A stretch of DNA of 64,000 bases from an uncultured Planctomycetota bacterium (GTDB lineage: Bacteria; JAJVIF01; JAPKYR01), in contig CAYGZQ010000007.1 of the NCBI GenBank assembly GCA_964354375.1, forward strand, positions 29,230-93,229, read 5' to 3'. Positions 4,326-50,915 of this stretch are shown here, one piece after another. How positions within the stretch are numbered: position 1 is the first letter of the stretch; every line of letters starts with the position of its first letter. The notes below the pieces were generated by a model. That model made no database searches, was not told the origin of the DNA, and saw only the letters and a list, made by a program, of their open reading frames with translations. The translations under genes were made by a program, and so were the position numbers.

Positions 4326-4409
4326 GCAGCGGCTCCCCCCGAGTGCGCCGGCTTTCCAGCCGGCATTCGTTTGCATCCAACGGTGCGTTTTACGCTATAA
4401 TTCGGCGAC

Positions 4410-5192: not shown

Positions 5193-5193
5193 C

Positions 5194-6936: not shown

Positions 6937-7027
6937 GGCTTATCACGCTGGTTTGGGTTCACTCACTCCCCAAACCGTTTCCAGTTCAAGGGTACATAAT
7001 CGACCCGGCGATGTCACCGCACCGTAC

Positions 7028-7885: not shown

Positions 7886-7944
7886 GCCGTTGTTAATCCT
7901 CCGATGTAGAGTTTATCAGCCGAAGCCCAAAAAGCTCCGGCATA

Positions 7945-12630: not shown

Positions 12631-12669
12631 CTCGACTCACCTCCGCATGCGATTCGGACTTGAACTCGG

Positions 12670-15600
12670 TCACTCCACCCCGTAAAGAACGACCTCATCA
12701 ATCAGCCACCCTCTGCGTGGCACACCGGACAGGCTTGAGGACGCCGCGAATCCGACGCGAATGCTCATCGGGTCCGCCAGCCACAAAGGATCAAGATACG
12801 CGTAGGAGATCCTCATTGCAGCCGGGGCCTCGTCGTTACAGAAGGCATCCTGACCGCCAAGCAGACCACCCGACTCAAGCTGGCAATCATACGGGAAGCC
12901 TATGTCCATCTGTTCCGGGGGGTCGAACCAATGGAAATCGGTCAGGTAGTTGTCAGCCTCGACAACGTGCACGTTCCCGCCGTCATGGCACTCCGAGACC
13001 ACATCATCATCGTAGAACTGGTAGTAATGGGCGAACCCGATCATCGCTTCGCTGAATCCGGGAGGGATGAAAATCGGGGGAGTGAAAAGCACTGCGTGAT
13101 CGTCAGTCGTGTAATCGGTGTCCGCATCGGCGAACTTGTACCCACACCCGCCGAGCACCGAATCCGTCACGCTCGCACCGTGCCATGTCGAGTCGCTGCC
13201 TTCGTCGAACGCGGTATCCCACTCGGCCTTATCGTAATACGGAGTCGGGTCATCGGGATCAAACCAGAAGAGAATCCCGTTGCCCACCGTCCACGCTTCC
13301 CTCTTTATTCCCTCATGATATCCGTCTGTTACCGACACGCTGACTCGGAATCGATTGCTGTAGCCACCGGTCACGAGATCGCTGATGACGAAGTCAAGAG
13401 CGGGGGCGATCGGATCGTAGTAGATGTTCCTCACTCGAACGCCGGGATACCGGAAATCCCACAGCGACCAGGTTCTGTAAATTGCGTCCCCGTCCGGATC
13501 GGACGCCGCCATCGCGTAATGAAGAGGATCATCCATATGGGGCGCAAGGTCCCCGCCTTCCAGCGGTCCGGCATCGGGTTCCTGATTGGGAGCATCTCCC
13601 TCGACATATACCGCGACATCGTCGATCAGCCAGCCGCGGTAGTTTGAGTATTCATGTCCGGTTGTCACGGCAAAGCCGATGTAGATATCGTTTCCGGCCA
13701 TTGCCGGAGGAATGCTCGCGGCGGAGACGGTGAGTCTGAACGGATCGGAAGCCTCATTCGACCGGTAGCAGAACGCCTGCTGGTCCTCCATCAGGGTATC
13801 GCCCTGGATCAGCTGGGACCAGCATGGCATCCCTCCCGTAATCTCGGCCGGCAGAACGTCGTAGGACGGGAGCTCGGGCGCCTCCGTTATCTTCACATTG
13901 CCTCCGTCGTATCCCTCCCAGAACTCGTACCCCGGCCTCGTCTTGGCAATGTCGAGGTCGTACGAGTGACGGAAAGCGATAATCCCGTGACCCATCCCGC
14001 TCGGAAGACTCACGGGCGGGCTCACAAGGATGTCGGACGAATTGTTCGTGTAATTAGTATTCGCCTCTCCAAACTTTCGACCTTCGCCCTGAAGCAGGGT
14101 GTCCGAGGTGGCCAACAGGGTCCACGCCGTGGTTCCAGCCTGCCCCACATGGGTCCAGCCCGCATTGTCTCCAGTCGTGTCATCGTTCAAATCAGCATGG
14201 AAAATCTGACCGTTAACCCAGACATGGTATGGGTCGGCCGAGACCGGTCCCCCCACCCCGTTCGTGACTTCACAACGGATCTCTGCTTCCCCCAGGATAC
14301 AGAAATCCGAGAACTTGACCTCCAGATGACCGTTGCCGTCGCCCGGATCGGGTCCGAACACCACAAAACCCGAGTCCACGATAGTCCAGCCATACGTCAC
14401 CGGCCAGACTGAATCAACCCCGATTTCGTACAGGGTGTTCTGTGCGCATCGGGGATACTTGTATCCGCTGATTTGGCTCACGATCACCGGCGCTGAGACG
14501 TCCTGAGCGTTCCCCTTGAGATCGACGTAGTAGTAGATCGTGTCCACTTCGTTCATTGTCAGAACGCGGAGATAATAGGTCCCCGGCATCAGGTAAAGCG
14601 CGCCGAGATCGATCTGGGCCTTCCCGCCGGAAATCTCCGATTGCGTCAGCTTCGTATGGGTCGAATCGAACACGCTCAGGAAGACCATGTTCGACCAGGC
14701 ATAGAGCGTGGCTGATCCTGTAAGCCCCTTGTCTACCGGAATTTCGAAGGAGTAGTAGTCGCTGTAGTCGATCAGCTCTCCGCCAGGGCGGCAGAGAGTC
14801 CCGTAGGCGGAGTCGATGAGATCGAACGGTTCCGCAGTGGCAAAAGTGTTGTTTCCGTCCGGGCCGCATTCGAGTTCCTCGACATTGACCCAGAGCACCT
14901 GGTAGGCGCTTAACGGCTGGTCCGGAGCTCCCGGCGCAAATGAGTTGTACTTCAGGCCGTCGTTCGATCCGACCCGGAATATCACCTGATGCTCACCTGA
15001 GCGCGCGGGGTTCACGATTCCGCTCAGATCAACGGAATAGACCGCCTTGACTCCCGTGTCCTGCACAAGGCTCATGGTCTGCCCCCCGCTGAAAAGCTCG
15101 GGAGCGAAAACCCGCACCGTGCTGACCTGGTCCGCGATGTTCCCGAGCGCCTGACCCTGCCAGTCGTACACTTCGAGCGTCAACAGGAGATTTCCACCGC
15201 CACCGGTCCCCGCATCGAATCCCAGCGTGTTCACATCGGCTCTCGGAAGCAAATGGAACGCCTCCGGCTGGTTAGCCTCCATTGGGAAATCATCCGGAAT
15301 TTCTCCGGGTGGATTCGGCACCGGCGGCGCCCATGATGCGTCCACTGCGTAGTTGAAGATGACCTGGGGACCGGGGGACATCTGGAACCAGATGAAGTAC
15401 CTTCTCGTGTTCGACGATCCGGCCGTGAACACCCCCCTGCCCTCGTCATCGTCCAGACCGACAAATTCGATCAGCTCTTCGATTGGCTGCTTAAACCCGA
15501 GGTAATCGCAGAAATATTGGTACGGATTCACGGTCGCAGTCAACAGGCCCGTGTTCGCGGTTCCCAGATTGCCCGGGATATATCGCATCATTCCCGACCC

Positions 15601-16137
15601 GTGGAACTCTGTCGGGTTCCACCATCTCGTATACCCGTCGGCACTTGTCAGGCGTGTCTCGGTCGGTCCTGCGAACACAAGATTCCCAACTACCTGGGTG
15701 CCGGGAGTAATCATGATGCCCTTCACGTCGAAACCCGCAAGCTGCGGGCTCGTTGCGAAAGGATGGGTCAGCGTCACGTCCACCGTGAACTTGCCCATCG
15801 CCGGGTCGCTGGCCGGGAGGTCGATAACCGCAGCCACTCCCATGGTCGAGTTGAGTATCCCCACGACATTCATGTGGAACGCGCTGTTCCTGAGCGGGAT
15901 CATCTCTACCGTCATCTTGTCGCGATCCAGTATCGCCTCCCAGTATCCCCACAGCCCGTGCGCCGCGCCCTTCGAAGAAGAAGCCGCGGCTTGAGTCAGT
16001 GCCTGCGAATCAACGCTCGTCTCCCCGGAAGCTCCCGGGGCAACCGGAATGTCGCCGGAACATCCCGCGGCAAGAAACACCGTGGCAAGAGCGAGGAAGG
16101 GAAGAGTACTACGCGTCCAGAGAATCAGCCGTTTCAT
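12670..16137 (-). CDS. Giant lipoprotein, family member B (1155 aa), a tandem paralog of A.
   Basis: AAGGAG RBS and lipobox LAAGC. The whole protein is collinear with A: HGLWGYWEA, ADGYTRWWNP, TATVNPYQYFCDYL, FNYAVDASW, IPDDFPMEAN, CRPGGELIDYSDYYSF, and GWLIDDVAVY / GWLIDEVVLY. Confidence 0.8.
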   Translation of the reverse strand: MKRLILWTRSTLPFLALATVFLAAGCSGDIPVAPGASGETSVDSQALTQAAASSSKGAAHGLWGYWEAILDRDKMTVEMIPLRNSAFHMNVVGILNSTMGVAAVIDLPASDPAMGKFTVDVTLTHPFATSPQLAGFDVKGIMITPGTQVVGNLVFAGPTETRLTSADGYTRWWNPTEFHGSGMMRYIPGNLGTANTGLLTATVNPYQYFCDYLGFKQPIEELIEFVGLDDDEGRGVFTAGSSNTRRYFIWFQMSPGPQVIFNYAVDASWAPPVPNPPGEIPDDFPMEANQPEAFHLLPRADVNTLGFDAGTGGGGNLLLTLEVYDWQGQALGNIADQVSTVRVFAPELFSGGQTMSLVQDTGVKAVYSVDLSGIVNPARSGEHQVIFRVGSNDGLKYNSFAPGAPDQPLSAYQVLWVNVEELECGPDGNNTFATAEPFDLIDSAYGTLCRPGGELIDYSDYYSFEIPVDKGLTGSATLYAWSNMVFLSVFDSTHTKLTQSEISGGKAQIDLGALYLMPGTYYLRVLTMNEVDTIYYYVDLKGNAQDVSAPVIVSQISGYKYPRCAQNTLYEIGVDSVWPVTYGWTIVDSGFVVFGPDPGDGNGHLEVKFSDFCILGEAEIRCEVTNGVGGPVSADPYHVWVNGQIFHADLNDDTTGDNAGWTHVGQAGTTAWTLLATSDTLLQGEGRKFGEANTNYTNNSSDILVSPPVSLPSGMGHGIIAFRHSYDLDIAKTRPGYEFWEGYDGGNVKITEAPELPSYDVLPAEITGGMPCWSQLIQGDTLMEDQQAFCYRSNEASDPFRLTVSAASIPPAMAGNDIYIGFAVTTGHEYSNYRGWLIDDVAVYVEGDAPNQEPDAGPLEGGDLAPHMDDPLHYAMAASDPDGDAIYRTWSLWDFRYPGVRVRNIYYDPIAPALDFVISDLVTGGYSNRFRVSVSVTDGYHEGIKREAWTVGNGILFWFDPDDPTPYYDKAEWDTAFDEGSDSTWHGASVTDSVLGGCGYKFADADTDYTTDDHAVLFTPPIFIPPGFSEAMIGFAHYYQFYDDDVVSECHDGGNVHVVEADNYLTDFHWFDPPEQMDIGFPYDCQLESGGLLGGQDAFCNDEAPAAMRISYAYLDPLWLADPMSIRVGFAASSSLSGVPRRGWLIDEVVLYGVE

Positions 16138-17937: not shown

Positions 17938-17998
17938 CGTCCCGGGTGATTCGAGTACTCTACCCTAAGAGGTCATGCAAGAGCAATCCCCCCCCATC

Positions 17999-19342
17999 TC
18001 AGCGGGCGCATCCCGCAAACGACTCGCTGAAATTCACGAACACCCCCGCCAGGCACCAGGCCCAGAACAGCGCAGTGTCCAGCCGACTCCACCTGCCGAC
18101 CCTCCTTGACGACTCCGCCCCGATGACCGCCATGCTCCCAAGCGGCACAATCAGAAACAAGTGATAGAAATCGTGACCCGGAACCCAGAAGCTTAGAAAT
18201 ATCATAAGCGGCAGCACCCACAGAACGCACAGCCCGAACCACCATCGCAGCATCGGAGCCATTTTCCTCAAATTCAGAATGCCCGTCAGCCAGATCGTCG
18301 GAAGAACAATAGCGAATCCGCTGAACCAGACGCTCCGGAACAGAAGCCGGTCCGTGCGCACACCTCCGAAATAGAAACCGAGGAATGTCCTGAGATTCGT
18401 CGCGAATCCGTCCCAGGCCGATTGCGCCCAGTACTCTCTCTGATGGGCATAGAGCGTCGCGTATTTGATCAGCCCTGGAAATGTGAACTCGCCGGTCGGA
18501 CCCAGCGCAAGCGCCGCAACGATGACATAGACAAGTACAGGCGCTCCGAGCGCGATCGCGGTCATGCCCCCGAACCAGCCCGCAGAAATCCCTCGCCCCT
18601 CCCTTTTCATTGCGACCATCAGCATCAGGACCCAAACCAGGATGAAAGGAACTATGATGCTCACGATCTGATGGAACAGGATAGCGACTGCAAGCCAAAG
18701 CCCTGCCCGAATGAGAAAAGCCGGCTTGCCGTTCGATGCGAAAGCGAGAATCGCGCCCGAGGCGACCGCGAGCAGCATCACGGCGGTCGGGTACTGAGCG
18801 CCGTCCGTTGCGTACCGGAAAAAAGTGACACTGGTCGCGAGGAACACGCACCAGGGCAGTGGGAACGGACTTCCCGGCACGAGTCGAATCAGAAGCCGGT
18901 ACAGCAGAAATACCGTGGCGGCGCACACGAGTGCGTTCCACCACTGCAGGAAGGTGATTGCGCCGAGCTGGGGGACCGCCTGTCGCAACAGACGGAAAAT
19001 GGCCGCTGTAACCGGCAGATAGAACAGATGATGCGGGTTCCACAGCACCCACCATCCCGCGCTGCGCTCCCGCTCTCCAAGTCCCCGAAGCTCTTCCGTC
19101 GAAAGCCGTGGACTCACCGGCATAGATGGAGGCGGCACCGTCACGTAGAACGGGGTTCCCTCGGCGGATGCGTAATTGTGAAGATAAATCGCCCAGCCCT
19201 GAGCATCGCCGTTCGGAATCTTCGCATTGGGACACGCAAGGTAGACGACCAGGCATACGAAGCCGAGTATCCAGCCGACCAGATACTCGCGTCTCGACGG
19301 CGATCTCTGAAGTGCGCTTTCCTCCATTAGCGGTCGGGACAA
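17999..19342 (-). CDS. GT-C-fold membrane glycosyltransferase-like protein (PMT/ArnT/DUF2723-like, 12 or more TM helices).
   Basis: 447-aa polytopic ORF. The track places a TTG at 19342; the first ATG is at 19327. An Asp/Glu-containing first periplasmic loop and the helix pattern resemble dolichyl-phosphate-mannose-type transferases. Family assignment is tentative. Confidence 0.5.
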   Translation of the reverse strand: MSRPLMEESALQRSPSRREYLVGWILGFVCLVVYLACPNAKIPNGDAQGWAIYLHNYASAEGTPFYVTVPPPSMPVSPRLSTEELRGLGERERSAGWWVLWNPHHLFYLPVTAAIFRLLRQAVPQLGAITFLQWWNALVCAATVFLLYRLLIRLVPGSPFPLPWCVFLATSVTFFRYATDGAQYPTAVMLLAVASGAILAFASNGKPAFLIRAGLWLAVAILFHQIVSIIVPFILVWVLMLMVAMKREGRGISAGWFGGMTAIALGAPVLVYVIVAALALGPTGEFTFPGLIKYATLYAHQREYWAQSAWDGFATNLRTFLGFYFGGVRTDRLLFRSVWFSGFAIVLPTIWLTGILNLRKMAPMLRWWFGLCVLWVLPLMIFLSFWVPGHDFYHLFLIVPLGSMAVIGAESSRRVGRWSRLDTALFWAWCLAGVFVNFSESFAGCAR

Positions 19343-19553
19343 GACTAACCCAGCCGGAAAGCAGGCGCAACAGAAGAATCACCGCAAGGGCGCCAAGAAC
19401 ACCAGGGACACCAAGAAGACGGACAAAATGAACCTTAACAGCAGGAAAATATCTCTGAATGGGGACGAGAGGCGGCCTCATACCAGGAATCGTCGCCCGA
19501 AAGGTTGATACCCAGGCTCGCAAGCAATAGAATACCGATTCCGTTTGCTTCAG

Positions 19554-21740
19554 ATGTCTGATTCTCACAACATGTACAGGCTCAACTCCCGGATTGCGAG
19601 GTCCAGCGACGGATGTCCGGCGCATCCGTCCCACTCCCAGTATCACCTTCTCAGGCTGCTCATCGGTAGTCTTCTCGGCGGCTGGAGCGCGATGCTGGTG
19701 TTCATGCTCCTGGGATTCCTGGGATCGATCGAGTTCACCCGGTCGGGGGGGCTGGCGATGCAGTGGGTATTCGTCGGGGGATCCGTGCTCGGCATCCTGC
19801 TCGGCCTGATCTTCTCGATAATCGCTGCCGTGCTGGTCAACATGATCCCGCCGCTCGGCAGAATCCTTCACCCGCTTGCGCTGGTAAGGGCAGGTTTCAT
19901 TCTGGTAATCGTCTGGCCTCTTGCTGCCCTGGCTCCCTGGCCGTACACATCTCTCGGTTTCGTACTGGCCCCGTTCGTCGCCATACTCCTGGCCTGGCTC
20001 GGCCTGAGGGGCAACCTTCACGCCGAGCTTGTGCCGCACTCCTCGATCGGACGGCTCCTTGGTACATCCGTCGGACCGTTCCTCGCCCTTGCGCTCGCTC
20101 TGTTCATCCTCATCCCGATGGTCAACCGCGGCTTCGGCAATCCGCACCAACCCAGGCTGGTTATCATCGCTGTCGACGGTGTCGACGGTCAGCTCCTGAA
20201 CCAATTCGTGCATGCCGAAGATTCCGACAAGTATGCGAACCTCAGACAGATGGCCGACGAGGGCGGCCTCGGAATAGTCGGAGCCGTTCAGCCCCTCGTA
20301 CCCACTCGCATGTGGGCGGACCTCATGACCGGCACCGACGCCGAGACTCACGGAATCTTCGACATCCACAGCACGTCCGCCGACTTCAAGGGCATGCCGA
20401 TATGGGAGATTCTCTCGGAACACGACTACAGGGTCGGCCTGTTCCAGGTTGCCCCTCCGCATGAGAAATGGTCGGACGCCGAATTCGACATTGCCGCGCC
20501 GGGCACGTTCGAGGCGCGAACCGATCCTCTGGCTCTCGTCCTCGAAAACGTCAGGGCGGCCGGTCGAGGCGAGGGCCGCCCGAATCCCCTGCAGGCACTC
20601 TACCTCGCGTGCCTTCTTGCCAGACACGGCGTAACGCTCGAAACGATCGCCGACCTGGCAAGGGAGTATCTCCTCGAGCTTGCCACCCGACCGTCGCCGC
20701 GTCTCACGTACCAGGCTCGCAAGCTTCTCGAGTTCAGAATCGAAACCGACTGCGCTCTCGCCCTTTTGAGACAGCATCCCGTGGATGCGGCGATCCTCCG
20801 TTTCGACAGTCTCGGACCCCTGTTCTTCACGTACTGGCGATACTCGAAGGCAAACGAGTTCGGTCCGCCGCCGGAGGATGTCGACGCTTCGGTTCTTGCG
20901 GGGCTCGGACAGGTCCTGCCGGACGCTTATGTGCAGCTCGACGGCCTCGTTCGGAGGCTTGAGACATTTCGCGGCCCCGGGACTTATTTCGCCGTTGTCT
21001 CCAACCACGGAATGAGGTCCGCCACCGATCGCAGACGCCTGGATCTCCAACTGTCCCCGGATCGGCTCATCCGGGCCTGCGGCTGGGAGGGTCGAGTCGT
21101 GGGAGACTCGGGCGGCGATGCCGTCTACTTTCGGCTCAGGGAGCCGTCGACCGATTCGGACCCGCTTATCGAGCTTGAGGACCTGCTGAGGACCGCCGAA
21201 TGGTCCGCCGGAGTCGACAATTATTCCGGAAGCAGAGGCATGCGAAATCTCCTGACCACCAACCGGCGTGAGAACTACCTCGAGGTCACCATCACCTTCT
21301 CCCATGATCTGACGCGCGAGTCATGGGTCACTATGGGCGCCTGGTCGGGACCGCTTGGGGATATCCTGCTTCCGGGCGAGCCGATGAGCGGACTTGTCTC
21401 CGGCACCGGCGTTTTTCTTGTATCCGGTCCGAGTTTCAAACCGGACGCGGTCGCAAACAGCCCTGCCCTCTTCGACATAGCGCCGACCCTGCTGCATGCG
21501 CTGGGCATTGAGATTTCCCGGGAGCTCCTCGGCCGCGTGATGGATGAGATGTTCGATTCTGTATGGCTCAGCAAGCATCCGGTCAGGTTCATCGACAGTT
21601 ACCATCCGCCCCGGCCTGCAGAACCCGAGCCGGGCCTCCAGCCGTCGACCCAGCCTCCCGAGGCGTTTCAGTATTCCGTCCCCGAGCCCCAGACCCCCGA
21701 GGAAATCCACTACTCCCCCCCGGCGCCTGTTGATTTGTAG
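19554..21740 (+). CDS. Membrane-anchored alkaline-phosphatase-superfamily protein (type I phosphodiesterase/nucleotide pyrophosphatase-like) with a Pro-rich C-terminus.
   Basis: After four or five N-terminal TM helices comes LVIIAVDGVDGQ, the metal-binding motif of the AlkP core, then a roughly 450-aa soluble domain. The start is uncertain: ATG 19554 or TTG 19545. Confidence 0.55.
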   Translation: MSDSHNMYRLNSRIARSSDGCPAHPSHSQYHLLRLLIGSLLGGWSAMLVFMLLGFLGSIEFTRSGGLAMQWVFVGGSVLGILLGLIFSIIAAVLVNMIPPLGRILHPLALVRAGFILVIVWPLAALAPWPYTSLGFVLAPFVAILLAWLGLRGNLHAELVPHSSIGRLLGTSVGPFLALALALFILIPMVNRGFGNPHQPRLVIIAVDGVDGQLLNQFVHAEDSDKYANLRQMADEGGLGIVGAVQPLVPTRMWADLMTGTDAETHGIFDIHSTSADFKGMPIWEILSEHDYRVGLFQVAPPHEKWSDAEFDIAAPGTFEARTDPLALVLENVRAAGRGEGRPNPLQALYLACLLARHGVTLETIADLAREYLLELATRPSPRLTYQARKLLEFRIETDCALALLRQHPVDAAILRFDSLGPLFFTYWRYSKANEFGPPPEDVDASVLAGLGQVLPDAYVQLDGLVRRLETFRGPGTYFAVVSNHGMRSATDRRRLDLQLSPDRLIRACGWEGRVVGDSGGDAVYFRLREPSTDSDPLIELEDLLRTAEWSAGVDNYSGSRGMRNLLTTNRRENYLEVTITFSHDLTRESWVTMGAWSGPLGDILLPGEPMSGLVSGTGVFLVSGPSFKPDAVANSPALFDIAPTLLHALGIEISRELLGRVMDEMFDSVWLSKHPVRFIDSYHPPRPAEPEPGLQPSTQPPEAFQYSVPEPQTPEEIHYSPPAPVDL

Positions 21741-22215: not shown

Positions 22216-24537
22216 TCAGCCCATGGCGAGACCGAACACGGCGGCGAAGATCGGACCGTCCGGTTCAATGCTGAACCAGACGTGTATTTGGTAGTGTTCA
22301 GGGTCCACATCGATGCAGGCAGGATAGCCTGGGATATCAAGCAGGCCGGCCCAGGACGCGCCTGTCTGATCGAAAGTCTCGATGCTCCATGTGGCGGCGC
22401 CCTGTTCCAGGACAACAACCCAGTTGTACGCGCCGTAACCGCCCTTGCTGGTCGGCATAACGGCGATGTCCCTGGGGGTTCCGTGGAATTCGTTGACGGT
22501 AGTAAACGGCAGATTCAGCAGCCCTGTGTTGTCGGTTGATACAACGCCGAAGCATTCCAGCGCAGGAGGTTCGGTTTCCATGAACCAGCAAATCAGGTCC
22601 ATTGAGCCTGAGACGCCCTGAGGGTCGGAGTCCAGCGCGAACCTGTCAAGATGCTCGATATCCACTTTGCCGTCGCCCGGTCCCGCCGGCACAAGGGACC
22701 CGCTGATATAGTCGACATCGCCGCTGAACGGGTTGCCCGTGAAGCCATACTGATAAACTCCCAGGATCACCGTGACCTCGGGATCCGGCTCCACGCCGGC
22801 GTCGGGATCGTTCACCTGGATCCAGTATATCTTTGCGTTCTTGACGCTGTCGGCCCAGTTCGCGGCTGTGTCGACGAACCGGAAATACCCCAGTGTCGGA
22901 TCCGGCATCCCTATCTGCATCGGCAACTGGCCGCTTTGGCTGTAGACCTCATTGAAGAAGAAGGCGTAGTCGCGCTTCAGACCGCCGAGGAATGTCGGCG
23001 ACTTCGCAGCAGAGATAGTGGATGCGACAAACTGTCCAAACGGGCAAAGCTCGAACCTGCCTAGTGTTTCGGGCGCCCCGTACAGGTCCAGTTCCGTGTA
23101 CCCGAAGAAACCTCCCAGCGTCGTCGCATGAACGGCGCTCTGGTAGTCAAGATCGTACTTGTACAGCATGTAATCGTCGGCAAAGAAATACACTCCCTCC
23201 ATCGAGCCTCCTCCCACGACCGAGATCTCCTTCAACACAGTCTCAGGCTGCGTCGGCAGGATTTTGGCGGTCACGAGATCCCATTTCAAAGGAGGCACCC
23301 AGCTCACCAGCGTCTGGAAGCGATGATAAGCGCCGACAACAGCACCGGACGGACCGAAGAACATGGAGTAACCGTCCTGAGTGTACTTTTCATAAGTCTC
23401 GACAGTGATCAGGCATTCCTTGATACCGTCGGACTCCAAAGCGTCGGGCGCAATCTCAGCCGTGTACGTAGAGTACACCGGATCGTCCGGTCCGCCGCCG
23501 CTTCCCGACACGACAGCCGCAGTGACCGGCGAACCGACTATACCCGGCGCGTCAATCACCACCCGCTCAATCTCATCGGGGCGCCACGTGTACACGTTGA
23601 TGTCCAGGGAGAGTTTCCCGCCCGTTCCGAGACCTTCCAGCCAGTACAGCGTGTTTTCCTTCTCGATGACCTCGACAGCGTAGCCCTCGGGCGCGTTGGC
23701 GGCCGTAGGGAAGTCGTCAGGTACGGTCGGATTGTCCATGGTGCTCGGGGGCGCCCAGCATGCATCGATCGCGTACTGAAACCGAAGCCAGTCAGCCGGA
23801 TCGTCGCCGAAGCTGATTTCGTAGTGGCGACGATTCGAGGAACCCGCGGAGAAGGCTCCCCTTCCCCCATTCGGCACGGTTGTGACGGGATCGTTCAGGC
23901 CCAGGCCGTCCGCGAAATACTTGTATCCGTTCACCGTCGAAGTGAAAACCCCCGCTCCGCCTTTCGAGCCAATGAGACCCTGCTTGAAGCCGAAAATCCC
24001 CGTGCCGGGGAACTCCTTCGGATTCCACCAACGAGTCAACCCGTCCGGATTCAGAAGCCTCGGCTCGCTGTAGGAGGGGAAGATGAGCGAGATATCGCCG
24101 AACGGCAGGTCCGATCCCGGCGTCAGGACAATTCCGCGAACATCGAATCCGGAATACTGATCCATGCCCGGAAACGGATGGTTGAGAATGACATCCACGC
24201 CGACGTAGTTCTGGGACTGGTTGATTACGAGCGTCCCCGAATCGAAGGTGAGTCCGGACAGAGCCGGGGGCTCCAGAAACCCCAGGGCGTTGAGATGAAA
24301 ATCCGCCCCCCTGACCGGCAGCACCTCGATCCTGCCGACGCTTTTCTGTATCGCGATGTCCCAGAGTCCCCAGAGGCATCTGCTTGGTGACGCCGTGACC
24401 GACGCAGCGGCATCGGGCGAAACCGGGCTGCCGTTGTGCGGAGCGACGGCGTCACCCGACCCGCATCCGAGCAGGTACGCGCTCAGGAAAACGGCTGCAA
24501 CCCATATTGAGTGTCCAGGCTTTATAGACATAGTCAT
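22216..24537 (-). CDS. Giant lipoprotein, family member C (about 773 aa from the ATG at 24537).
   Basis: Lipobox LLGCGSG. The N-module motifs are CLWGLWDIA, PDGLTRWWNPKEF, TSTVNGYKYFADGLG, FQYAIDACW and VPDDFPTAAN. The C-terminal half is divergent. Confidence 0.75.
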   Translation of the reverse strand: MTMSIKPGHSIWVAAVFLSAYLLGCGSGDAVAPHNGSPVSPDAAASVTASPSRCLWGLWDIAIQKSVGRIEVLPVRGADFHLNALGFLEPPALSGLTFDSGTLVINQSQNYVGVDVILNHPFPGMDQYSGFDVRGIVLTPGSDLPFGDISLIFPSYSEPRLLNPDGLTRWWNPKEFPGTGIFGFKQGLIGSKGGAGVFTSTVNGYKYFADGLGLNDPVTTVPNGGRGAFSAGSSNRRHYEISFGDDPADWLRFQYAIDACWAPPSTMDNPTVPDDFPTAANAPEGYAVEVIEKENTLYWLEGLGTGGKLSLDINVYTWRPDEIERVVIDAPGIVGSPVTAAVVSGSGGGPDDPVYSTYTAEIAPDALESDGIKECLITVETYEKYTQDGYSMFFGPSGAVVGAYHRFQTLVSWVPPLKWDLVTAKILPTQPETVLKEISVVGGGSMEGVYFFADDYMLYKYDLDYQSAVHATTLGGFFGYTELDLYGAPETLGRFELCPFGQFVASTISAAKSPTFLGGLKRDYAFFFNEVYSQSGQLPMQIGMPDPTLGYFRFVDTAANWADSVKNAKIYWIQVNDPDAGVEPDPEVTVILGVYQYGFTGNPFSGDVDYISGSLVPAGPGDGKVDIEHLDRFALDSDPQGVSGSMDLICWFMETEPPALECFGVVSTDNTGLLNLPFTTVNEFHGTPRDIAVMPTSKGGYGAYNWVVVLEQGAATWSIETFDQTGASWAGLLDIPGYPACIDVDPEHYQIHVWFSIEPDGPIFAAVFGLAMG

Positions 24538-25061
24538 TTTTGGCTGCCCCCGGGACCGCGTAATCCGCCCGAGTATATAGATACGCTTGCCCCGCCTCTG
24601 CTTAGAATTCCCGGGAACCGTCTCTCCGATTGATGTCAAAGAGACTACCCGGTCCGTACGCCGGCGTCAACCATCCAGGCCGTTCCCGGGGGACGGACAG
24701 TACCCAACGCCCTTGTCCTTAATCGGGTTATAAGGCATTATATCAGGTTTAATTGGACGGCGGCAATCACGAAACTGGGTCCACAGCTATAATCATCTAT
24801 CAATGCCTATCAATTGATAGTTTACAAGCGAAACTTGAATGTATAAGTCTTTTTGGCGCAGAATTCACCCGAAAAAACGCAGGGCGAAACATCGTCGCGG
24901 CCCGCTCCCAATGCACGATATGCCTGGTTGCGGATACGAATGCCTCCCGTCCCGGCGGGAAGTGCCCTTGACTGAGAACACGCGACATAGTAAATGATTA
25001 CTGACTATTCGGATTGCCTGCACTAACAGTCTAATCTTCAAAGACTGGGAAGGGGAGAGAA

Positions 25062-25286
25062 ATGAAGGGGCAACGCGTCACCGTCACCGAGGTGGATGAT
25101 CTTTCATCCGCCCGCGACTCCAGCCGCTTGGGCTCCGGGACCCAACCGCGTGAATCATGGCGCGGTTTTTTAGTGGGCTCGGAAAGCCCGGAGCCGACCG
25201 AGGAGGACGAGGTCATCTGGAACATGCCGCCCACATACCCCTTTGACGGCGAAGACCCGAAGGAGAACTCCGGCTTCATTTCATAG
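25062..25286 (+). CDS. Possible small acidic protein of 74 aa. The call is speculative.
   Basis: There is an AGGGGAG RBS 4-5 nt before the ATG. The ORF lies in the AT-richer leader upstream of the kinase gene and I recognise no homology. Confidence 0.25.
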   Translation: MKGQRVTVTEVDDLSSARDSSRLGSGTQPRESWRGFLVGSESPEPTEEDEVIWNMPPTYPFDGEDPKENSGFIS

Positions 25287-25545
25287 CCGGGAAACTCTGA
25301 AATTCGACGGGCCTGTCACAAGGGGGACCTCCCGCCTCGAACTGCTGATCGGAGAAGTCGCAAGTCTCCAGCTCGTATCCGGACCGGGGACCGGCGAACC
25401 CGTCAAGAGCATCTCGCCCAGGATATTTTAATTAATATCAGTACTGTGTAAATTGCATTGAATCTGATTAAGTCCAGACGTAAATGCAATGATTAAAGTC
25501 CGATTGACTCCGAATGGAGCATCGGTACTGATACTTATTGTGTAG

Positions 25546-28500
25546 ATGTCTGAAGACGCCGGGGCATACTTGGGGTTGCGACTGAAAGGCCGCTACCTTA
25601 TTGAGGATCACATCGGCAGTGGTCTGTCCGCGCACGCATTCCGCGCATACGACACCCTGCTGCAGGGACGTGTCGTGGTCAAGATAATCAAGAGCTCCAT
25701 CGCAGACGTCGCCATCGATCTCGGGGAGAAATGGAAGGAGGAGAGCCGCAAGGCCATGCAGGTCCGCGGACACCCTCATATCGCCAGCATCCTCGACCTC
25801 GGCGAAGAGACGTTGGCAGTGAGCGACAAGCCCGAGAACGTTCACTTCATCGTCACCGAATTCATAGAGGGCAAGACCCTAAGAGACCTCGCGGGCGATC
25901 GCAGCCCTCTCGATCCTCCGACCATCTTCGCAATCTCGCACCAGCTTCTAAGCACTCTCGACTTCCTGCAGGCCAGGAAACTCTCGCACGGCGACCTCCA
26001 CGCCGGCAACATCATGGTCTCCCAGACCGGCGGCAACAGGCCGTTCATCAAGATCATCGATTTCGGCCTGGCCTCCAACACGCTTGTCCCGCGAAACCGG
26101 GAAAAGGACATACATTTCGCGCTCGGCCAGCTCGAGCATCTGTGCAAGAAGGCGCTTGCAGTCGAGAAAGAGGAGCACACGCGCGCGGTCCTGGAGAGCT
26201 TCGCCGCGCAGCTCAAGAAGGCGCAGAACTTCATTCCGAGCGGACGCATGCGCATCGCAGACCTTGTCGCGGAGGTCGAGACCCTGCAGCAGGAGCTGGC
26301 CAAGGGAGCGGTCCCCGGTGCGAAGGCTGTAACCGACGGCGAAGGCCCGCGCCGGCGGATCGACGTCACGAGGCGCACGCACTTCGTGGGACGCAAGAAC
26401 GAGGTCGAACGCCTGTACCAGCTTACCTCCAACGCTTTCCTGTCGAAGCAGGGCGCGCTTATGTTTGTCTCGGGAGAGGCCGGTGTGGGCAAGACCCGCC
26501 TGGTGGATGAAGTGCTCGGACGGATAGCCACCGAGAGAACGCGTCACCTGCTCCTCTACAACCGATGCAAGCAGGCTCCCAATCTGCCCCACGCCGCTCT
26601 GTTCGAAGCGGTGACCGATTTTCTGGACGAGATCCCGGGGGGTACCGACGAGGAGAAATTGTCGGTCGTTCTCGGATCGAGCCACAACATCGTGAGGCCT
26701 TTCGCGAGTCTGATAGCGGACTACCGTGCGATCAGCGGCATGAATCCGTCCAGAGACCCCGAAATCTCCTCGTCCGGGAACGCAGCGCACCTGTTCAGCG
26801 GATTCCTCACGCAGGCCGCCCTGAACACGCCGGTGGTTCTTTTCCTCGACGATCTCCACTGGGCCGATGCCGCGACGCTGGAATTCCTTGATTTTTTCGC
26901 TGCACGCATCCACGATTCGCCCATCGTAGTGTTCGCCACTCATCGACCCGAAGAGCTGGCGGGCGGCCGTGACGGGAAACCTCATCCGCTCGACATCCTG
27001 CTGGCCAAGCTCGACAGCAACGTCTCCACCAGGACAATCGAGCTCGGGGGGCTGGAGCGGGAGGAAGTGGACGAGATACTGAGCAATCTCTACACGTTTG
27101 TGCGTCCGGACGATTTCACCGCTCTGTCGGAGTCGGTCCGGAAGATGGCGGGCGGCAATCCCTTTTATCTCTTCGAGATCACCGGCCTGATGGAGGACGA
27201 GAAGATCCTGGTCGAGCGCGGCGAAAACAACTGGATTCTGGACGGGGACCTCGCGGAATTCGCGGTTCCGGACTCGATCAACAGCCTCATCCACCGCAGG
27301 GTCGACAGGCTCAGCCTGAACGAGATTCTGCTGCTGCGCGCCGCAGCCCTGCAGGGCGACAGTTTCGATATAAACCTTCTTGAGCGCATGTTCACCCCGC
27401 CGGACGAGAATCTGTCGGATATCATTGAAAACCTCCTCAAGCGTCACGGGCTAATCCAGCAGAGAGAGCCCGTCCATTTCGCGTTCAGCCACCACCAGGT
27501 CAGAAGGGCCATCCTGAGAGGCATTCCGCAGGACGATGTGGCTCGCGGACATCACGACATCGCACGCCTGCTCCAGCAGATGGCCGAGGAGAACCAGACG
27601 GCGGTCCCGAACTACCTGATCGCCCACCACCTCTCGCTCGCGGGAGAGAATACGGCGGCCGCCGAAAACTTCCATGCCGCAGGGAAGCGCGCGCTCAAGG
27701 CTCAGCAGTTCCACCTTGCGCTCGATCACCTGCGTCACGCGGCCGATCTCCTGGGCCCCTCCGATATGGAGACCGTCCTCGGCATCAACGTCACCCTGGA
27801 CCTGCTCGAAGCGGTCAAGCCCCTGGGTGAGCGCAAACTCCACGAGATGGCCGTGCACCAGCTGCAGGCGATCGCCGGCCACACCGGACGTCCCGACCTT
27901 CAGCTCAGGTCCATGCTCGAAGAGTGCATCTACCTCAGGATGATCAGCGAGAACGAGAAATCGCTGCAGGTGGCGCTGAGTCTCCTCGAACTGGCCAGGA
28001 AAAAAGAGGACGAGCAGACCGAGGCGGTGGCCCTTAAGGAAGCGGGCACTACGAGCTACCTGATGGGCAACATGGAGACCGCGGAGGAATACTTCCATCT
28101 CGCCGCGGGCATCCTCGCCAGCACCGGCGACCGCGCTCAGCTCGCGCGCGTCTACAACAACCTCGGGCTCGTCTGCAGAAACACCATGCGGCAGAGCGAG
28201 ATGATCCGCTACTTCCGCCGCGCCCTCGACATCTTCCGCGAGATCGACGACAGCATCGGGCAGCGTTTCCCACTGGGCAACCTCGGGATCGTCTACTTCG
28301 AGCGAGGAGAGTACGAGCGCGCATTCGAGTGCTTTTCGGCGCTCAAGGCGTCCATGGGCGACCGCGCCGACCTCATGATGGAGGCCAAGGTCGATTTCTC
28401 CATCGGGGAGATCTACCTCGAGGTCGGCCTGCTCGACAAGGCTCGCGAGTCCTGCGAGCACGCGCTCGAGACCTTCATGACCATCGGCAACCGTCAGGGA

Positions 28501-29073
28501 GAGAGCGAAGTCCTCGGCACCCTCGGCGGCATTCATCTCGCCAAGGGCGATATCCAGATCGCCAGGGAGTACTTCGAGCGATCCATGGAAGTCAAGAAAG
28601 TCATCGGGAACATGGTAGGAATGCTGCACTCGCAGATCACGCTTGCGAGGATCGCCAACATGGAGGGACGTCACGACGAGGGTCTGAGACTCGCCGAGGA
28701 GGTTCTGGAGAACGCACGCAAGAGAAACCAGCGCTCAATCGAACTCGAGTGCCTCACGGAGATCATGGTTGCGAAGGCCCAGATCGAAAACCCAGTCAAA
28801 GCCCTGGATGTCCTCAGCGCAAACGAGGACCCCTCGAACCTGAACGCGGGCGTATCCTCGGCACTCATATCGTTCGCCTACAAGGTCGGCGAGCTCGCAT
28901 TCCAGGCGGGCGACGAGAGCCGCGCGCTCAGGTACATCGGCCTGTCGGGCAAGATCGTCGAGGGTATCCTCGAGAGCATCACCGAGCCCGAGTGGCGTTC
29001 CGCATACGAAAAGAAACGGGAGCGCATCCTGGAGACATATCGGCGTCTCAAGCCCGCCATCGCGGAAACGTAG
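25546..29073 (+). CDS. PknK/MalT-like multidomain regulator: an N-terminal Ser/Thr protein-kinase domain, an AAA/STAND P-loop NTPase and C-terminal TPR repeats.
   Basis: Kinase motifs are the G-loop IGSGLSAHAF, the VAIK-like VVVKIIK, the non-RD catalytic loop HGDLHAGN and DFG (IDFGLA). The P-loop is FVSGEAGVGKTRLVDEV. Beyond about residue 800 are repeated TPR-like helices (e.g. YNNLGLVCRNTMRQSEMIRYFRRALDIF). Confidence 0.85.
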   Translation: MSEDAGAYLGLRLKGRYLIEDHIGSGLSAHAFRAYDTLLQGRVVVKIIKSSIADVAIDLGEKWKEESRKAMQVRGHPHIASILDLGEETLAVSDKPENVHFIVTEFIEGKTLRDLAGDRSPLDPPTIFAISHQLLSTLDFLQARKLSHGDLHAGNIMVSQTGGNRPFIKIIDFGLASNTLVPRNREKDIHFALGQLEHLCKKALAVEKEEHTRAVLESFAAQLKKAQNFIPSGRMRIADLVAEVETLQQELAKGAVPGAKAVTDGEGPRRRIDVTRRTHFVGRKNEVERLYQLTSNAFLSKQGALMFVSGEAGVGKTRLVDEVLGRIATERTRHLLLYNRCKQAPNLPHAALFEAVTDFLDEIPGGTDEEKLSVVLGSSHNIVRPFASLIADYRAISGMNPSRDPEISSSGNAAHLFSGFLTQAALNTPVVLFLDDLHWADAATLEFLDFFAARIHDSPIVVFATHRPEELAGGRDGKPHPLDILLAKLDSNVSTRTIELGGLEREEVDEILSNLYTFVRPDDFTALSESVRKMAGGNPFYLFEITGLMEDEKILVERGENNWILDGDLAEFAVPDSINSLIHRRVDRLSLNEILLLRAAALQGDSFDINLLERMFTPPDENLSDIIENLLKRHGLIQQREPVHFAFSHHQVRRAILRGIPQDDVARGHHDIARLLQQMAEENQTAVPNYLIAHHLSLAGENTAAAENFHAAGKRALKAQQFHLALDHLRHAADLLGPSDMETVLGINVTLDLLEAVKPLGERKLHEMAVHQLQAIAGHTGRPDLQLRSMLEECIYLRMISENEKSLQVALSLLELARKKEDEQTEAVALKEAGTTSYLMGNMETAEEYFHLAAGILASTGDRAQLARVYNNLGLVCRNTMRQSEMIRYFRRALDIFREIDDSIGQRFPLGNLGIVYFERGEYERAFECFSALKASMGDRADLMMEAKVDFSIGEIYLEVGLLDKARESCEHALETFMTIGNRQGESEVLGTLGGIHLAKGDIQIAREYFERSMEVKKVIGNMVGMLHSQITLARIANMEGRHDEGLRLAEEVLENARKRNQRSIELECLTEIMVAKAQIENPVKALDVLSANEDPSNLNAGVSSALISFAYKVGELAFQAGDESRALRYIGLSGKIVEGILESITEPEWRSAYEKKRERILETYRRLKPAIAET

Positions 29074-29136: not shown

Positions 29137-29751
29137 GTGCTAAACCTGGAAGCTCAGCCGAACCAGTCCGTTTTCAGCTCCGTCGTTCGATCGCCGCGCC
29201 TGATCCTTCGACCATACTCCGAAGTGCGCGATCTCGAAGATATCGCCTCGATGCTCGCCGATCCTCGAAACGCGGACGCCATCGGGGTATCACCCGGTGC
29301 ATTTTCAGTCGAGAGAGTTCGACAATCCAAGCGGGCTCGCGCAGACTCAGGTGTCGCCGGAGACTGGACCGTCTTTTTTCCCGCAAACGATGCGGAGCGT
29401 TTCGTCGGGGAAGCGAGAATCGCTGACTGGGACTCACTGAATCACATCAGGGAAATCTTCGCCTCGATCCACCCAGCGTATGGCGGCAAGGGCTTAGGAG
29501 TCGAGGCCGTCTCCGCTCTCATGGAACACATTTTCCGTACGGACCAGATTGCCACGGTCAGGGTCCAGACCCTGGAAAGCAATCTGAAGGCGCTGAGACT
29601 GACGGGGAAGCTCGGTTTCAGGGAATCGGGCAGACGAATCGTGCTTCCCGATCCCGTCCGCGGATTCAAGGGCGGGACGGCTGTCTTCCTCGAGTGCAGA
29701 TCCCACCAATTCAGACTTCCAACCGAAGGCACAGAAAAAACCCGGCTTTGA
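29137..29751 (+). CDS. GNAT-family N-acetyltransferase (RimL/RimJ-like).
   Basis: RLILRPYSEVRDLEDIASML, ...SIHPAYGGKGLGVEAVSALMEHIF... and LESNLKALRLTGKLGFRESG fit the Acetyltransf_3 pattern. Confidence 0.7.
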   Translation: MLNLEAQPNQSVFSSVVRSPRLILRPYSEVRDLEDIASMLADPRNADAIGVSPGAFSVERVRQSKRARADSGVAGDWTVFFPANDAERFVGEARIADWDSLNHIREIFASIHPAYGGKGLGVEAVSALMEHIFRTDQIATVRVQTLESNLKALRLTGKLGFRESGRRIVLPDPVRGFKGGTAVFLECRSHQFRLPTEGTEKTRL

Positions 29752-33890: not shown

Positions 33891-34922
33891 TCAGCGGACA
33901 GGGAGAGACCCGTCAATCGATGCGGGCGGGCGACCTTCGCCGAACTCAAGGAGTATGCGGGCGACCTCCTCGGGATCGTCACATCTCACGATCCGGTTTC
34001 TGACAAGCGACGCCTGCGCGAACCCCCTAAGATATCGGACCACGTGTTTTCTGAACTCCAGAATCCCCCTCTTGTCATGAAACTGCGCCAAGAGCCGCCT
34101 TTGGTGTTCCAGCATCACCTCGACCAATTCCGACCTGGTCCTTTTCGGTCGGCCAGCGCCTTCAGTCATGAATCTCTCACAGTCGCCCACAAGCCAGGGG
34201 TCGCCCATCATCGCTCGCCCGATCATCACGCCCGCGCAGCCCGTTGTATCGAACATACGCTTTGCATCATCGGGTGTGCCGATGCCTCCGTTGCCGATAA
34301 CAGGGATGGAAAGGTCACTCACAAGCCCCGCGATTGCCTCCCAGTCCGGCTCTCCGCCGAATCCCATCTTTGCAGTCCGACAATGAAGCGTAACCCAGGC
34401 GCAGCCGAGGTCCTGCGCGCGTCTGCAGGCCTCGATCCCCGATCGATCATCCGGGCTCGTGTAATACCCGATCCGTGTCTTCAGGCTGACCGGTATTTTC
34501 ACCGCCCCCAGGATCGCTTTCAGATTTGCCGACAGGAGATCGAGGTCCCTGAGAAGGGCGCTGCCGCCCCCGCCCTTGTGAACCTTCCGCACACTGCATC
34601 CGCAGTTGAAGTCGATTGTGCTCGCGCCGGCATCCTCAAGGATTTTCGCCGCTGTCGCGCAGATGTCGGGAACGCTTCCGAAAATCTGCACGTGGCATCT
34701 CTCTTTCGCCACGTCCCTGACAAAGGCGTCCCTGTCGGGCGATTTCCTTGAGGCGACAGCATGTGTGGAGACGAAGGGGACCCAGACATGACGCGCACCG
34801 CGTTCTCGAAGAATCGGTCGATAGGCGGCGTCCGTCCATCCCGCAAGCGGCGCTGCGCATACGGGCTTCTCGGCCGGATCGAGAAGTCGTTCCAGGAGAT
34901 CATCGTCCCGCTTGTCTGCCAC
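33891..34922 (-). CDS. dusB: tRNA-dihydrouridine synthase.
   Basis: The TIM-barrel Dus motifs are present: DFNCGCSVRKV, the HCR motif (TLHCRT) and IGNGGIGTPDDAKRM. Confidence 0.85.
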   Translation of the reverse strand: MADKRDDDLLERLLDPAEKPVCAAPLAGWTDAAYRPILRERGARHVWVPFVSTHAVASRKSPDRDAFVRDVAKERCHVQIFGSVPDICATAAKILEDAGASTIDFNCGCSVRKVHKGGGGSALLRDLDLLSANLKAILGAVKIPVSLKTRIGYYTSPDDRSGIEACRRAQDLGCAWVTLHCRTAKMGFGGEPDWEAIAGLVSDLSIPVIGNGGIGTPDDAKRMFDTTGCAGVMIGRAMMGDPWLVGDCERFMTEGAGRPKRTRSELVEVMLEHQRRLLAQFHDKRGILEFRKHVVRYLRGFAQASLVRNRIVRCDDPEEVARILLEFGEGRPPASIDGSLPVR

Positions 34923-47961: not shown

Positions 47962-48011
47962 AACGGCAACTCCCATGACCCTGAATAGATAACCTGATGC
48001 AATATGGAGCA

Positions 48012-50777: not shown

Positions 50778-50915
50778 GGTGGACCTCCGAGATTTGAACA
50801 GCCATTCACTTAGATGTGTCGTGCATAGGAAATAATAGAATAACACAGCCGGGAAAACAAGAAAGCGGCGCATTGAGAGTCGCGCCGCTGGGGGAGAGCT
50901 GGTTTGAGCAATACG

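Follow-up and report, generated by a model that had tools for sequence, protein, structure and literature searches.

We analyzed a 64,000-nucleotide (nt) stretch of DNA from an uncultured Planctomycetota bacterium (contig CAYGZQ010000007.1, positions 29,230 to 93,229; the whole stretch is called the window below), focusing on the interval between a lipoprotein gene on the minus strand, lipoprotein C, and a plus-strand gene for a 1175-amino-acid (aa) protein that joins a Ser/Thr kinase domain, a nucleotide-binding oligomerization domain (NOD), and a tetratricopeptide repeat (TPR) superhelix. This interval holds a conserved gene for a 74-aa protein (25062-25286, plus strand), which together with the kinase gene makes up the stable evolutionary unit at the locus; a GNAT gene frequently follows (nine loci). 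The original prediction, made from the sequence of the window, had placed the two large open reading frames (ORFs) correctly, at 22216-24639 on the minus strand (the lipoprotein) and 25546-29073 on the plus strand (the 1175-aa kinase-AAA-TPR protein), but had taken 24540-25545 for intergenic DNA and for a single control region; instead, part of it is taken up by a distinct conserved gene that has expression signals of its own. We read 24538-25545 as the probable meeting point of three transcription units: lipoprotein C, reading leftward; the 74-aa gene, reading rightward with its own promoter-like block, structured 5′ untranslated region (5′ UTR), and strong Shine-Dalgarno sequence; and the kinase-NOD-TPR gene, also rightward, with its own bipartite promoter-like element and probably reading on into the GNAT gene. 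Long AT-richer "control regions" may conceal short conserved genes, which is a caution for annotation.

We gathered loci of kinase orthologs from assemblies, GTDB genomes, and JGI metagenomes; the genome records of these relatives are metagenome-assembled genomes labelled Planctomycetota or unclassified bacterium. Related loci are denoted L0xx, the locus in the window "win," and the paralogs of lipoprotein C in the window A, B, D, and E. The small gene lies upstream of the kinase gene in 15 related loci: win, L016, L001, L003, L005, L008/L013, L011, L012, L018, L019, L021, L038, and L039, together with a divergent variant in L010 and L042. The product in the window has an MKG start, a variable hydrophilic middle, RGF, and a C-terminal IW-x-x-PP-x-YPF...EN[ST]GF[IVL]x; the family as a whole follows the pattern of an M[KR]G start, a variable hydrophilic middle, and an end of the form IW-[ST]-x-PP-x-YPF...EN[ST]GF[IVL]x. 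The N-terminus, MKGQRVTVTEVDDLSSARD, is without a hydrophobic stretch. Across loci whose flanks cannot be aligned, the ORF keeps its frame, its length (70-82 aa), its MKG start, and its Shine-Dalgarno tract; directly 5′ of the 74-codon ORF in the window stands GGGAAGGGGAGAGAA. In six pairwise comparisons between divergent loci, the C-terminal third has a proportion of nonsynonymous differences (pN) of 0.16-0.28 against a synonymous proportion (pS) of 0.5-1.0, the synonymous sites being saturated. The gene had already been called in the source assembly (P0123), and comparison of its product with Pfam, NCBIfam, and PADLOC gave no match. On this comparative sequence evidence, the small gene is real, is evidently under protein-level selection, and is tightly linked to the kinase gene.

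The linkage can also be approached from the protein side. A word-index search with the small protein returned a 91% twin only, and an exhaustive HMMER search was required: among 1.84 billion representative proteins, it found nine small-protein clusters of 72-80 aa. Three members from this search were looked up in their genomic context. Two of them (L038 and L039) have a kinase start, MAEDxRxYLGL[RK]LKGRY, 210-250 nt 3′ of the small gene, and the third is consistent with this arrangement: 277 nt after it begins a gene of ≥618 aa on the same strand. The distance from the small gene to the kinase N-terminus is 210-280 nt in every family member with readable context, and among those members none was seen away from the kinase.

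It might be argued that no module exists and that synteny in a young clade is all that keeps the small gene, the kinase, and lipoprotein C adjacent, the small protein having an unrelated role. All loci do come from one clade in which the kinases are at least 56% identical, and the order of the wider neighborhood is conserved as well (an aconitase-family gene, S8 peptidase, Elm1-like, Dus, pantothenate kinase, and NadC). However, the small gene-kinase pair survives at least three changes of upstream neighbor, persisting beside lipoprotein C, beside an unrelated 788-aa membrane protein in L005 and L008, and beside other genes in L018 and L021, which lipoprotein C does not. Together with the spacing held within narrow limits and the lack of any other context for the small-protein family, this makes an accident of synteny quite improbable.

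The small gene is preceded by a promoter-like block (24965-24995, plus strand) that reads CCCTTGAC-N11-GACATAGTAAAT in the window and CCCTTGAC-N11-GACAT[AT]GTAAAT across loci. Its CTTG, its GACAT.GTA, and the spacing between them are invariant or nearly so in 11 loci, with unconserved flanks, and the block was found in L038 and L039 too. The 5′ UTR (25010-25059, plus strand) begins with CGGATTGC (25010-25017), in which GGATTG is invariant, continues into a hairpin with the arms CAGTCT/AGACTG (25027-25032 and 25042-25047), and ends in a purine-rich Shine-Dalgarno tract, GGGAAGGGGAGAG (25047-25059), which abuts the hairpin and is kept in all loci. The hairpin was recovered in nine of 11 single-sequence folds, and its arms vary from locus to locus yet stay complementary (CAGUCUUC/GAAGACUG, CAGCCUUC/GAAGGCUG, GGUCUCCGG/CCGGAGACU, CAGUUGUCC/GGAUAACUG). 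RNAalifold returned no structure on the MAFFT alignment of the 5′ UTRs, in which the arms were misaligned; the hairpin is seen in the single-sequence folds. Sites homologous to the hairpin are present in L001, L003, L005, L008, L011, L012, L018, L019, and L021, and no Rfam family matches them; the covariance models of Rfam 15 gave no match at E ≤1 anywhere in 24450-25650.

The kinase gene has upstream signals of its own. The last ~60 nt before its ATG are conserved in 14 of 17 loci and consist of a sequence block, a TTGACT-like hexamer, 20 nt, GATA[CTG]T, 6-11 nt, and the ATG. In the window (25504-25535, plus strand), TTGACT (25504-25509) is followed after exactly 20 nt by GATACT (25530-25535) and, 10 nt further on, by the ATG. 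A GATAnT-type hexamer at the 20-nt spacing occurs in 14 of the 17 loci (L003 being one register off), with TTGAnn ahead of it in about 10, and the element is present also in L006, L017, L007, L020, and L022. An in-frame stop directly precedes the kinase ATG, and there is no Shine-Dalgarno sequence; combined with a promoter-like element that abuts the start codon, this suggests, as the simplest reading of the sequence, that the kinase mRNA is leaderless or nearly so and starts from its own promoter. The element is found in loci that lack the small gene, and terminator-like hairpins follow the small gene in three loci, both of which argue for separate transcription units. By the conservation seen in these alignments, the small gene and the kinase gene each have a separate conserved upstream block. 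Promoter prediction on the interval, as the original prediction had proposed, was of limited use: a sigma-70 consensus scan did return two sites, both on the minus strand, but missed every one of the conserved blocks, that at 24965-24995 included, and is uninformative for this lineage.

The original prediction had also pointed to direct repeats of the form tgattaa[ag]gtcc near 25460-25500. The repeats are real (25465-25501, plus strand): TGATTAAGTCC (25465-25475) and TGATTAAAGTCC (25490-25501) differ by one inserted A, and the repeat pattern has only these two matches in the window, but only the second copy fits the pattern as it was written. In most loci this second copy falls within the block (T)GAT[AT]AA(A)GTCCGA, directly 5′ of the −35-like hexamer, while the more upstream copy is apparent by inspection only in the window, L003, and L021. 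Since the second copy lies inside the kinase-proximal block, it belongs to the kinase promoter region rather than a shared operator.

After the small gene comes a spacer (25287-25380, plus strand) in which C exceeds G and which ends in the 9-mer CTCGTATCC (25372-25380); this spacer may represent a 3′ UTR or a termination zone. The ratio of C to G is 1.15-3.4 in the first 75-105 nt after the small-gene stop in all 10 loci compared, the window having the lowest value (1.15). Eight of 10 loci have the 9-mer, 131-175 nt 5′ of the kinase ATG, compared with a best count of five of 10 in shuffled sequences, and it marks the switch from the C-over-G stretch to an AT-rich one. Sites resembling terminators, a hairpin followed by a T-run, come after the CTCGTATCC region in L005, L008, and L038. 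We considered pairing CTCGTATCC as an inverted repeat with GGATACGA (24932), but the upstream copy is unconserved in other loci and the pair is put down to chance.

These features bear on the main rival to a trans-acting role, namely, that the small ORF encodes a cis-acting leader peptide: a ribosome stalled at or near its stop would cover a region of the C-rich spacer that serves Rho loading or termination and so tune read-through into the kinase gene, in the manner of TnaC/tnaA or SecM/secA. Like the nascent peptides TnaC and SecM, the small ORF is short, lies upstream across a long spacer, is conserved at its C-terminus, and contains Trp and Pro residues there. Conservation falls in the last ~25 codons by the stop, where an aromatic residue and a Pro-Pro pair occur and the final motif is invariant; the N-terminus is nearly neutral. 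The C excess after the stop is present in 10 of 10 loci, the small ORF has never been found apart from the kinase gene, and the tnaC-tnaA spacer is comparable in length to the 210-260 nt seen here. Yet the ORF is three times longer than that of TnaC and, with its 70-82 codons, its elaborate promoter and 5′ UTR, and its strong Shine-Dalgarno sequence, would be large for a leader peptide. The kinase gene downstream has its own conserved bipartite promoter-like element at the ATG, kept even where the small ORF is missing, and the terminator-like hairpins and T-runs of some loci suggest constitutive separation. Three loci have 6-8 codons after the motif, one variant is without the terminal motif, and in the window itself C hardly exceeds G. 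We therefore regard a leader peptide as unlikely.

The kinase-NOD-TPR gene (25546-29073, plus strand) encodes a reduced Hanks-type kinase domain (residues ~1-255), an AAA_16 NOD (~280-461), helical and winged-helix-like parts, and a TPR superhelix (~690-1175). Pfam recognizes Pkinase (63.4 bits, cut-off 31.7), AAA_16 (82.9 bits, cut-off 32.6), TPR_12 (90.8 bits), and TPR_MalT; no DNA-binding domain was detected in the protein with Pfam. The orthogroup comprises 19 proteins that are 56-100% identical, the next relatives falling below 30%. In the orthologs, the Walker A motif GEAGxGKT and the Walker B motif LFLDDLHWAD are invariant, and with its AAA_16 and TPR matches the protein has the NOD and repeat sensor by which signal transduction ATPases with numerous domains (STAND proteins) are recognized. 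Within the kinase domain, the ATP-binding features of the N-lobe are all present (the Gly-rich loop IGSGLSAHAF, the β3 Lys, and the helix-C Glu), and K46, E66, D150, N155, and D172-F-G are invariant in the 19 orthologs. The original prediction had described a non-RD catalytic loop, HGDLHAGN, and no recognizable APE motif, and both are confirmed: SHGDLHAGN occupies residues 147-155, the loop in the family is H[GD]DLHAGN, and the match to the Pkinase profile ends at position 147 of 263. Relative to the HRDxKxxN signature, Arg is changed to Gly or Asp and Lys to His, with the catalytic Asp, the Asn, and DFG retained. In alignment with canonical relatives, the activation segment, APE, and helix F motif have no counterpart.

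The reduction is clearest against proteins of the same architecture. Canonical bacterial kinase-AAA_16-TPR proteins share the domain order and are homologous over kinase, NOD, and TPR, and relatives only ~25% identical (P0023-P0120, 25-30%) keep HRDLKPxN, GT..YMAPEQ, and DLYALG, whereas here the ~110 residues after DFG are replaced by ~80 that form three helices. A full-length AlphaFold model (mean predicted local distance difference test [pLDDT] 77.8) was unusable for the kinase part (30-55), and residues 1-280 were remodelled with a deeper alignment. The resulting model (pLDDT 85.7; predicted template-modelling score 0.82) has a Hanks N-lobe, helices D and E, and the catalytic and DFG strands, followed by the three helices. 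Its best fold matches are GAK, PknB, and PknA (template-modelling [TM] score ~0.63), and the best sequence match of the kinase domain in the PDB is also PknB, over residues 13-185. A Bud32/RIO-like minimal kinase was considered from weak NCBIfam matches and JGI names, and was set aside when the fold search led to PknB, GAK, and other Hanks kinases. The pseudokinase families of the bacterial Ser/Thr kinase (bSTK) atlas (DLHK, ActPs1-3, GLW, DYD, and CP1) lose the VAIK Lys and/or the HRD Asp and/or the DFG Asp (bioRxiv 10.1101/2025.01.12.632604); the Lys and both Asp residues are invariant here, and the domain does not fall among these families. As judged from the alignment, the kinase domain has been reduced without loss of any catalytic residue.

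The obvious comparison is with PknK of Mycobacterium tuberculosis, likewise a soluble protein with an N-terminal Hanks-type kinase, an AAA_16-type NOD, and a MalT-like/TPR sensor and thus of the same architecture. PknK is, however, a canonical RD kinase with activation-loop threonines, in contrast to the H[GD]DLHAGN loop and the missing activation segment, APE, and helix-F motif of the protein here, and we know of no small gene linked to it. With no activation segment, the protein does not have the canonical catalytic domain of PknK, and orthology to PknK (Rv3080c) is doubtful, as identity in the orthogroup drops from 56% to below 30% outside one uncultured clade. Multi-domain architectures are a noted feature of the PknK family (bioRxiv 10.1101/2025.01.12.632604), and PknK is reported to phosphorylate the regulator VirS (PMC4601284), i.e., to act catalytically. 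This weakens the analogy of the original prediction, in which the kinase may signal mainly through its scaffold, as PknK does. The catalytic Lys, Glu, Asp, Asn, and DFG are invariant in the protein here.

The remainder of the protein resembles known sensors. The best fold match of the full-length model is 6mfv, a solved STAND-TPR structure (E 1e-13; TM 0.58 on the target), with CED-4 and Apaf-1 also matched. As in MalT-class STAND NTPases such as 6mfv, a Walker A/B NOD is followed by a TPR superhelix, and by analogy the principle of that class, ligand-gated and nucleotide-dependent oligomerization, would be expected here. The effector, by contrast, is a reduced kinase domain and not a DNA-binding domain, and to our knowledge no co-conserved small protein gene has been described for MalT-class STANDs. 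Fold matches of the TPR part are peptide-binding TPRs, namely, LGN/Pins-peptide complexes, RapF, and NprR.

We tentatively favor, while giving it somewhat less than an even chance, the reading that the small protein is a trans-acting partner at the TPR sensor and that oligomerization of the NOD activates a minimal kinase output. In this scheme, the small, probably unstructured protein would act in trans on the STAND protein, its C-terminal linear motif W-x-x-PP-x-YP...N[ST]GF[IVL] binding within the TPR superhelix, whether as a ligand, an antagonist, or a substrate. Nucleotide-dependent oligomerization would then switch the Walker A/B NOD, and the output would be the N-terminal kinase module, which has lost its activation segment and substrate-binding lobe while keeping the catalytic residues, and which would be controlled by proximity instead of activation-loop phosphorylation. 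What we infer here is that the two proteins bind each other, in which direction control runs, and on which targets the pair acts. The narrower version, in which the disordered 74-aa protein is a dedicated ligand of the TPR sensor, or a substrate through the invariant Ser/Thr of N[ST]GF, and the kinase is activated by oligomerization, is possible but doubtful. Bacterial STAND proteins are common, but few of their ligands are known, and a small protein constantly beside a STAND kinase offers a concrete candidate for a ligand or substrate. The narrower version, if true, would be a protein-ligand-gated STAND kinase without a described counterpart, and the reduced kinase domain would outline a route from a Hanks kinase to an oligomerization-driven output module.

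Several observations weigh against this reading. The kinase is kept with the small gene missing in L006, L017, L020, and L022 (L007 has too little upstream sequence to judge), so that the small gene is either dispensable for the kinase or encoded elsewhere in those genomes. Replacement of the ENSGF end in the L010/L042 variant and the 6-8 extra residues after the C-terminal motif in L011, L019, and L021 argue against strict recognition of the C-terminus. The N-terminal two-thirds of the small protein evolve in a near-neutral way, and a conserved C-terminus by the stop, with Pro-Pro and a C-over-G spacer, fits a regulatory nascent peptide too. The likeness of the TPR part to peptide receptors is generic for TPR superhelices. 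Finally, all sequences compared are metagenome-assembled.

Two known systems have a similar layout. In the RRNPP systems (Rap/Phr, NprR/NprX, PlcR/PapR), the gene for a TPR receptor likewise adjoins a small gene, and the active ligand is the conserved C-terminal part of the small gene's product. These are Firmicutes systems whose pro-peptides carry export signals and act from outside. Their receptors are without NOD or kinase, whereas the protein here carries both and has no helix-turn-helix (HTH) domain; the N-terminus of the small protein is hydrophilic, with no signal peptide, and the pair thus stands outside the RRNPP family on the side of both peptide and receptor. In the AfsK/AfsR/AfsS system of Streptomyces, Ser/Thr kinase signalling is joined to a NOD-TPR STAND protein, and the 63-aa afsS gene is adjacent. 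There, kinase (AfsK) and STAND (AfsR) are two proteins, the latter with a SARP DNA-binding domain, and afsS, a target at the transcriptional level, lies downstream instead of upstream. An AfsR model matches the kinase-STAND protein weakly, at the level of the TPR, and the likeness to AfsS rests on gene layout.

The pair could also be read as an anti-phage defense system, or as a ribosomally synthesized and post-translationally modified peptide (RiPP) precursor with its TPR recognition protein. Partial, sub-threshold matches point in that direction: to a TOMM kinase/cyclase (188 bits versus 706), to the HaaT RiPP TPR protein (143 versus 1125), and to MADS6 kinase, PD-T4-6, and mad6 kinases. These matches cover generic kinase N-lobe, AAA_16, or TPR parts and lie far below the cut-offs. 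Moreover, the locus is single-copy among housekeeping genes and not a variable island, no maturase (radical SAM, cyclodehydratase) is conserved alongside, and a variable N-terminus with a conserved C-terminus is the reverse of leader and core peptides. Both readings, with only generic domain matches below threshold to recommend them, were rejected as very improbable.

Lipoprotein C (22216-24537, minus strand) is 773 aa long from its likely start, the ATG at 24537, and begins MTMSIK...AYLLGC, with the lipobox LLGC (in the window, VAAVFLSAYLLGC). A hydrophobic region followed by GC occurs within the first 40 residues in 20 of 20 orthologs; the orthologs counted from lipoprotein C itself number 18, at 53-89% identity. 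Comparison with Pfam and NCBIfam assigned no family. A candidate core promoter, TATATAGATAC (24574-24584, minus strand; GTATCTATATA on the gene strand), lies ~40 nt 5′ of the ATG, and this box aligns in win, L016, L011, L003, L001, and L019 amid intergenic DNA that is otherwise unalignable. As the downstream gene at 19545-21740 (plus strand) is convergent, lipoprotein C is monocistronic. That downstream gene (731 aa; GC content at third codon positions [GC3] 0.75) is the true gene at its position, while a 1110-aa minus-strand ORF at 17973-21305, the longest there, is a shadow ORF with GC3 of 0.45-0.57 and an Arg-rich, nonsense-like product. The 731-aa product shares 49% identity with a membrane protein of L003 and with the Phosphodiest-domain protein of L001.

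The original prediction made the kinase protein a dedicated regulator of lipoprotein C, or of the surface-protein family to which it belongs, acting through a palindrome and the TGATTAA-GTCC repeats as operators. The divergent pairing on which it relied does recur, in nine of the 17 kinase loci that extend far enough upstream (win, L016, L006, L011, L003, L001, L019, L010, and L039) and also in L042, which was found from the lipoprotein side; in the other eight, lipoprotein C is replaced or absent. Its place is taken by the 788-aa membrane protein in L005 and L008 (the gene in L005 was considered as a distant lipoprotein C, but has no similarity to it), and it is absent in L017, L018, L020, L021, and L022. 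Conversely, three further orthologs of lipoprotein C were looked up: those of L040 (67% identity) and L041 (56%) have no kinase nearby, while that of L042 (53%) is accompanied by the small-gene variant, the kinase, and the GNAT gene. Because the whole neighborhood, housekeeping genes included, is syntenic in the clade, adjacency of lipoprotein C and the kinase is expected among relatives and says little about regulation. As a neighbor of the kinase, lipoprotein C is frequent but dispensable.

The candidate operator (24797-24820) consists of a perfect 14-bp palindrome, CTATCAATTGATAG (24807-24820), and a preceding half-site, CTATCAAT (24797-24804), both of which exist as described. The palindrome is unique in the window. 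At the aligned site, L016 has CTATCGATTGATAG, L011 has CAATCAACTGATTG, and L001 has GAATCGATTGATTC, and in the closest relative the palindrome has one substitution; the core is kept in the window and these three loci, and the outer positions change in pairs that preserve the dyad. The ~45 nt surrounding it can be aligned between the window and L011, though little else can. These observations lend mild support, from sequence comparison, to a protein-binding site in the subclade of nearest relatives. As to frequency, the palindrome was considered and rejected as statistically exceptional: the window has five perfect 14-bp palindromes against 4.5 expected, and one occurs in 6% of shuffled intergenic regions. 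It is absent from six of 10 lipoprotein-C-bearing intergenic regions. The proposal had been put forward on the understanding that the palindrome or the repeats should recur at other family loci, but neither is found upstream of A, B, D, or E, and searches for the palindrome allowing ≤3 mismatches or a degenerate core were blank at the other family loci, so that a family-wide operator is rejected. Furthermore, the repeats lie in the promoter-proximal block of the kinase, ~950 bp from the lipoprotein C start, and the palindrome would have to be bound by some other factor, no DNA-binding domain having been detected in the kinase protein. With no shared sites and no fixed neighbor, a dedicated regulator of this kind is improbable, and for the family the result is negative: nothing here shows a family-wide lipoprotein regulator.

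The interval does have a lower GC content than the window (53.2% versus 58.6%), as had been noted, but the difference is modest and concentrated in two AT-rich pockets, 24701-24900 (~43% GC) and 25401-25500 (35% GC).

The GNAT gene (29137-29751, plus strand; Acetyltransf_3 in Pfam, RimJ/RimL-like) begins 63 nt 3′ of the kinase gene. It directly follows the kinase, with gaps of 12-90 nt, in win, L016, L003, L007, L011, L017, L018, L020, and L042. It may belong to the kinase operon and perhaps form part of the output. In L042, two STAS-domain genes (106-790) lie beyond the GNAT gene; in the window, the original prediction puts a STAS gene beside E and D.

The lipoprotein family occupies three regions of the window (9175-16137, 22216-24537, and 45184-50873) and has homologs P0156-P0256. 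Lipoprotein C has the N-terminal ~400 aa in common with its paralogs A, B, D, and E; in the family as a whole, only the N-terminal ~350-400 residues are common, and they have no Pfam match. More than 200 metagenomic relatives join this N-terminal domain to PQQ/BamB-like propellers, PKD, SBBP, Kelch, or β-helix parts. A pair of genes for AIM24 plus zinc-ribbon and TMEM43 plus zinc-ribbon proteins (7028-9108, minus strand) adjoins B in the window, while in L040 the pair (3687-5737) adjoins the lipoprotein C ortholog, which indicates that lipoprotein paralogs have swapped positions between genomes.

Across the window, there are two tRNAs only, and a Shine-Dalgarno-like sequence precedes only about one-third of the ORFs. 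TATAAT-like boxes stand 5-10 nt before several starts, for example, those at 2296 and 4410 and those of the minus-strand genes 33891-34922 and 56961-57689; boxes that abut starts in this way suggest that leaderless mRNAs are frequent in the organism. The kilobase of lowest GC content in the window (6001-7000, 52%) contains part of a gene for an AAA_15/AAA_21 (AbiEii/OLD-like) ATPase (5194-6936, minus strand; lower GC3, 0.62), which may be an acquired or defense-type gene.

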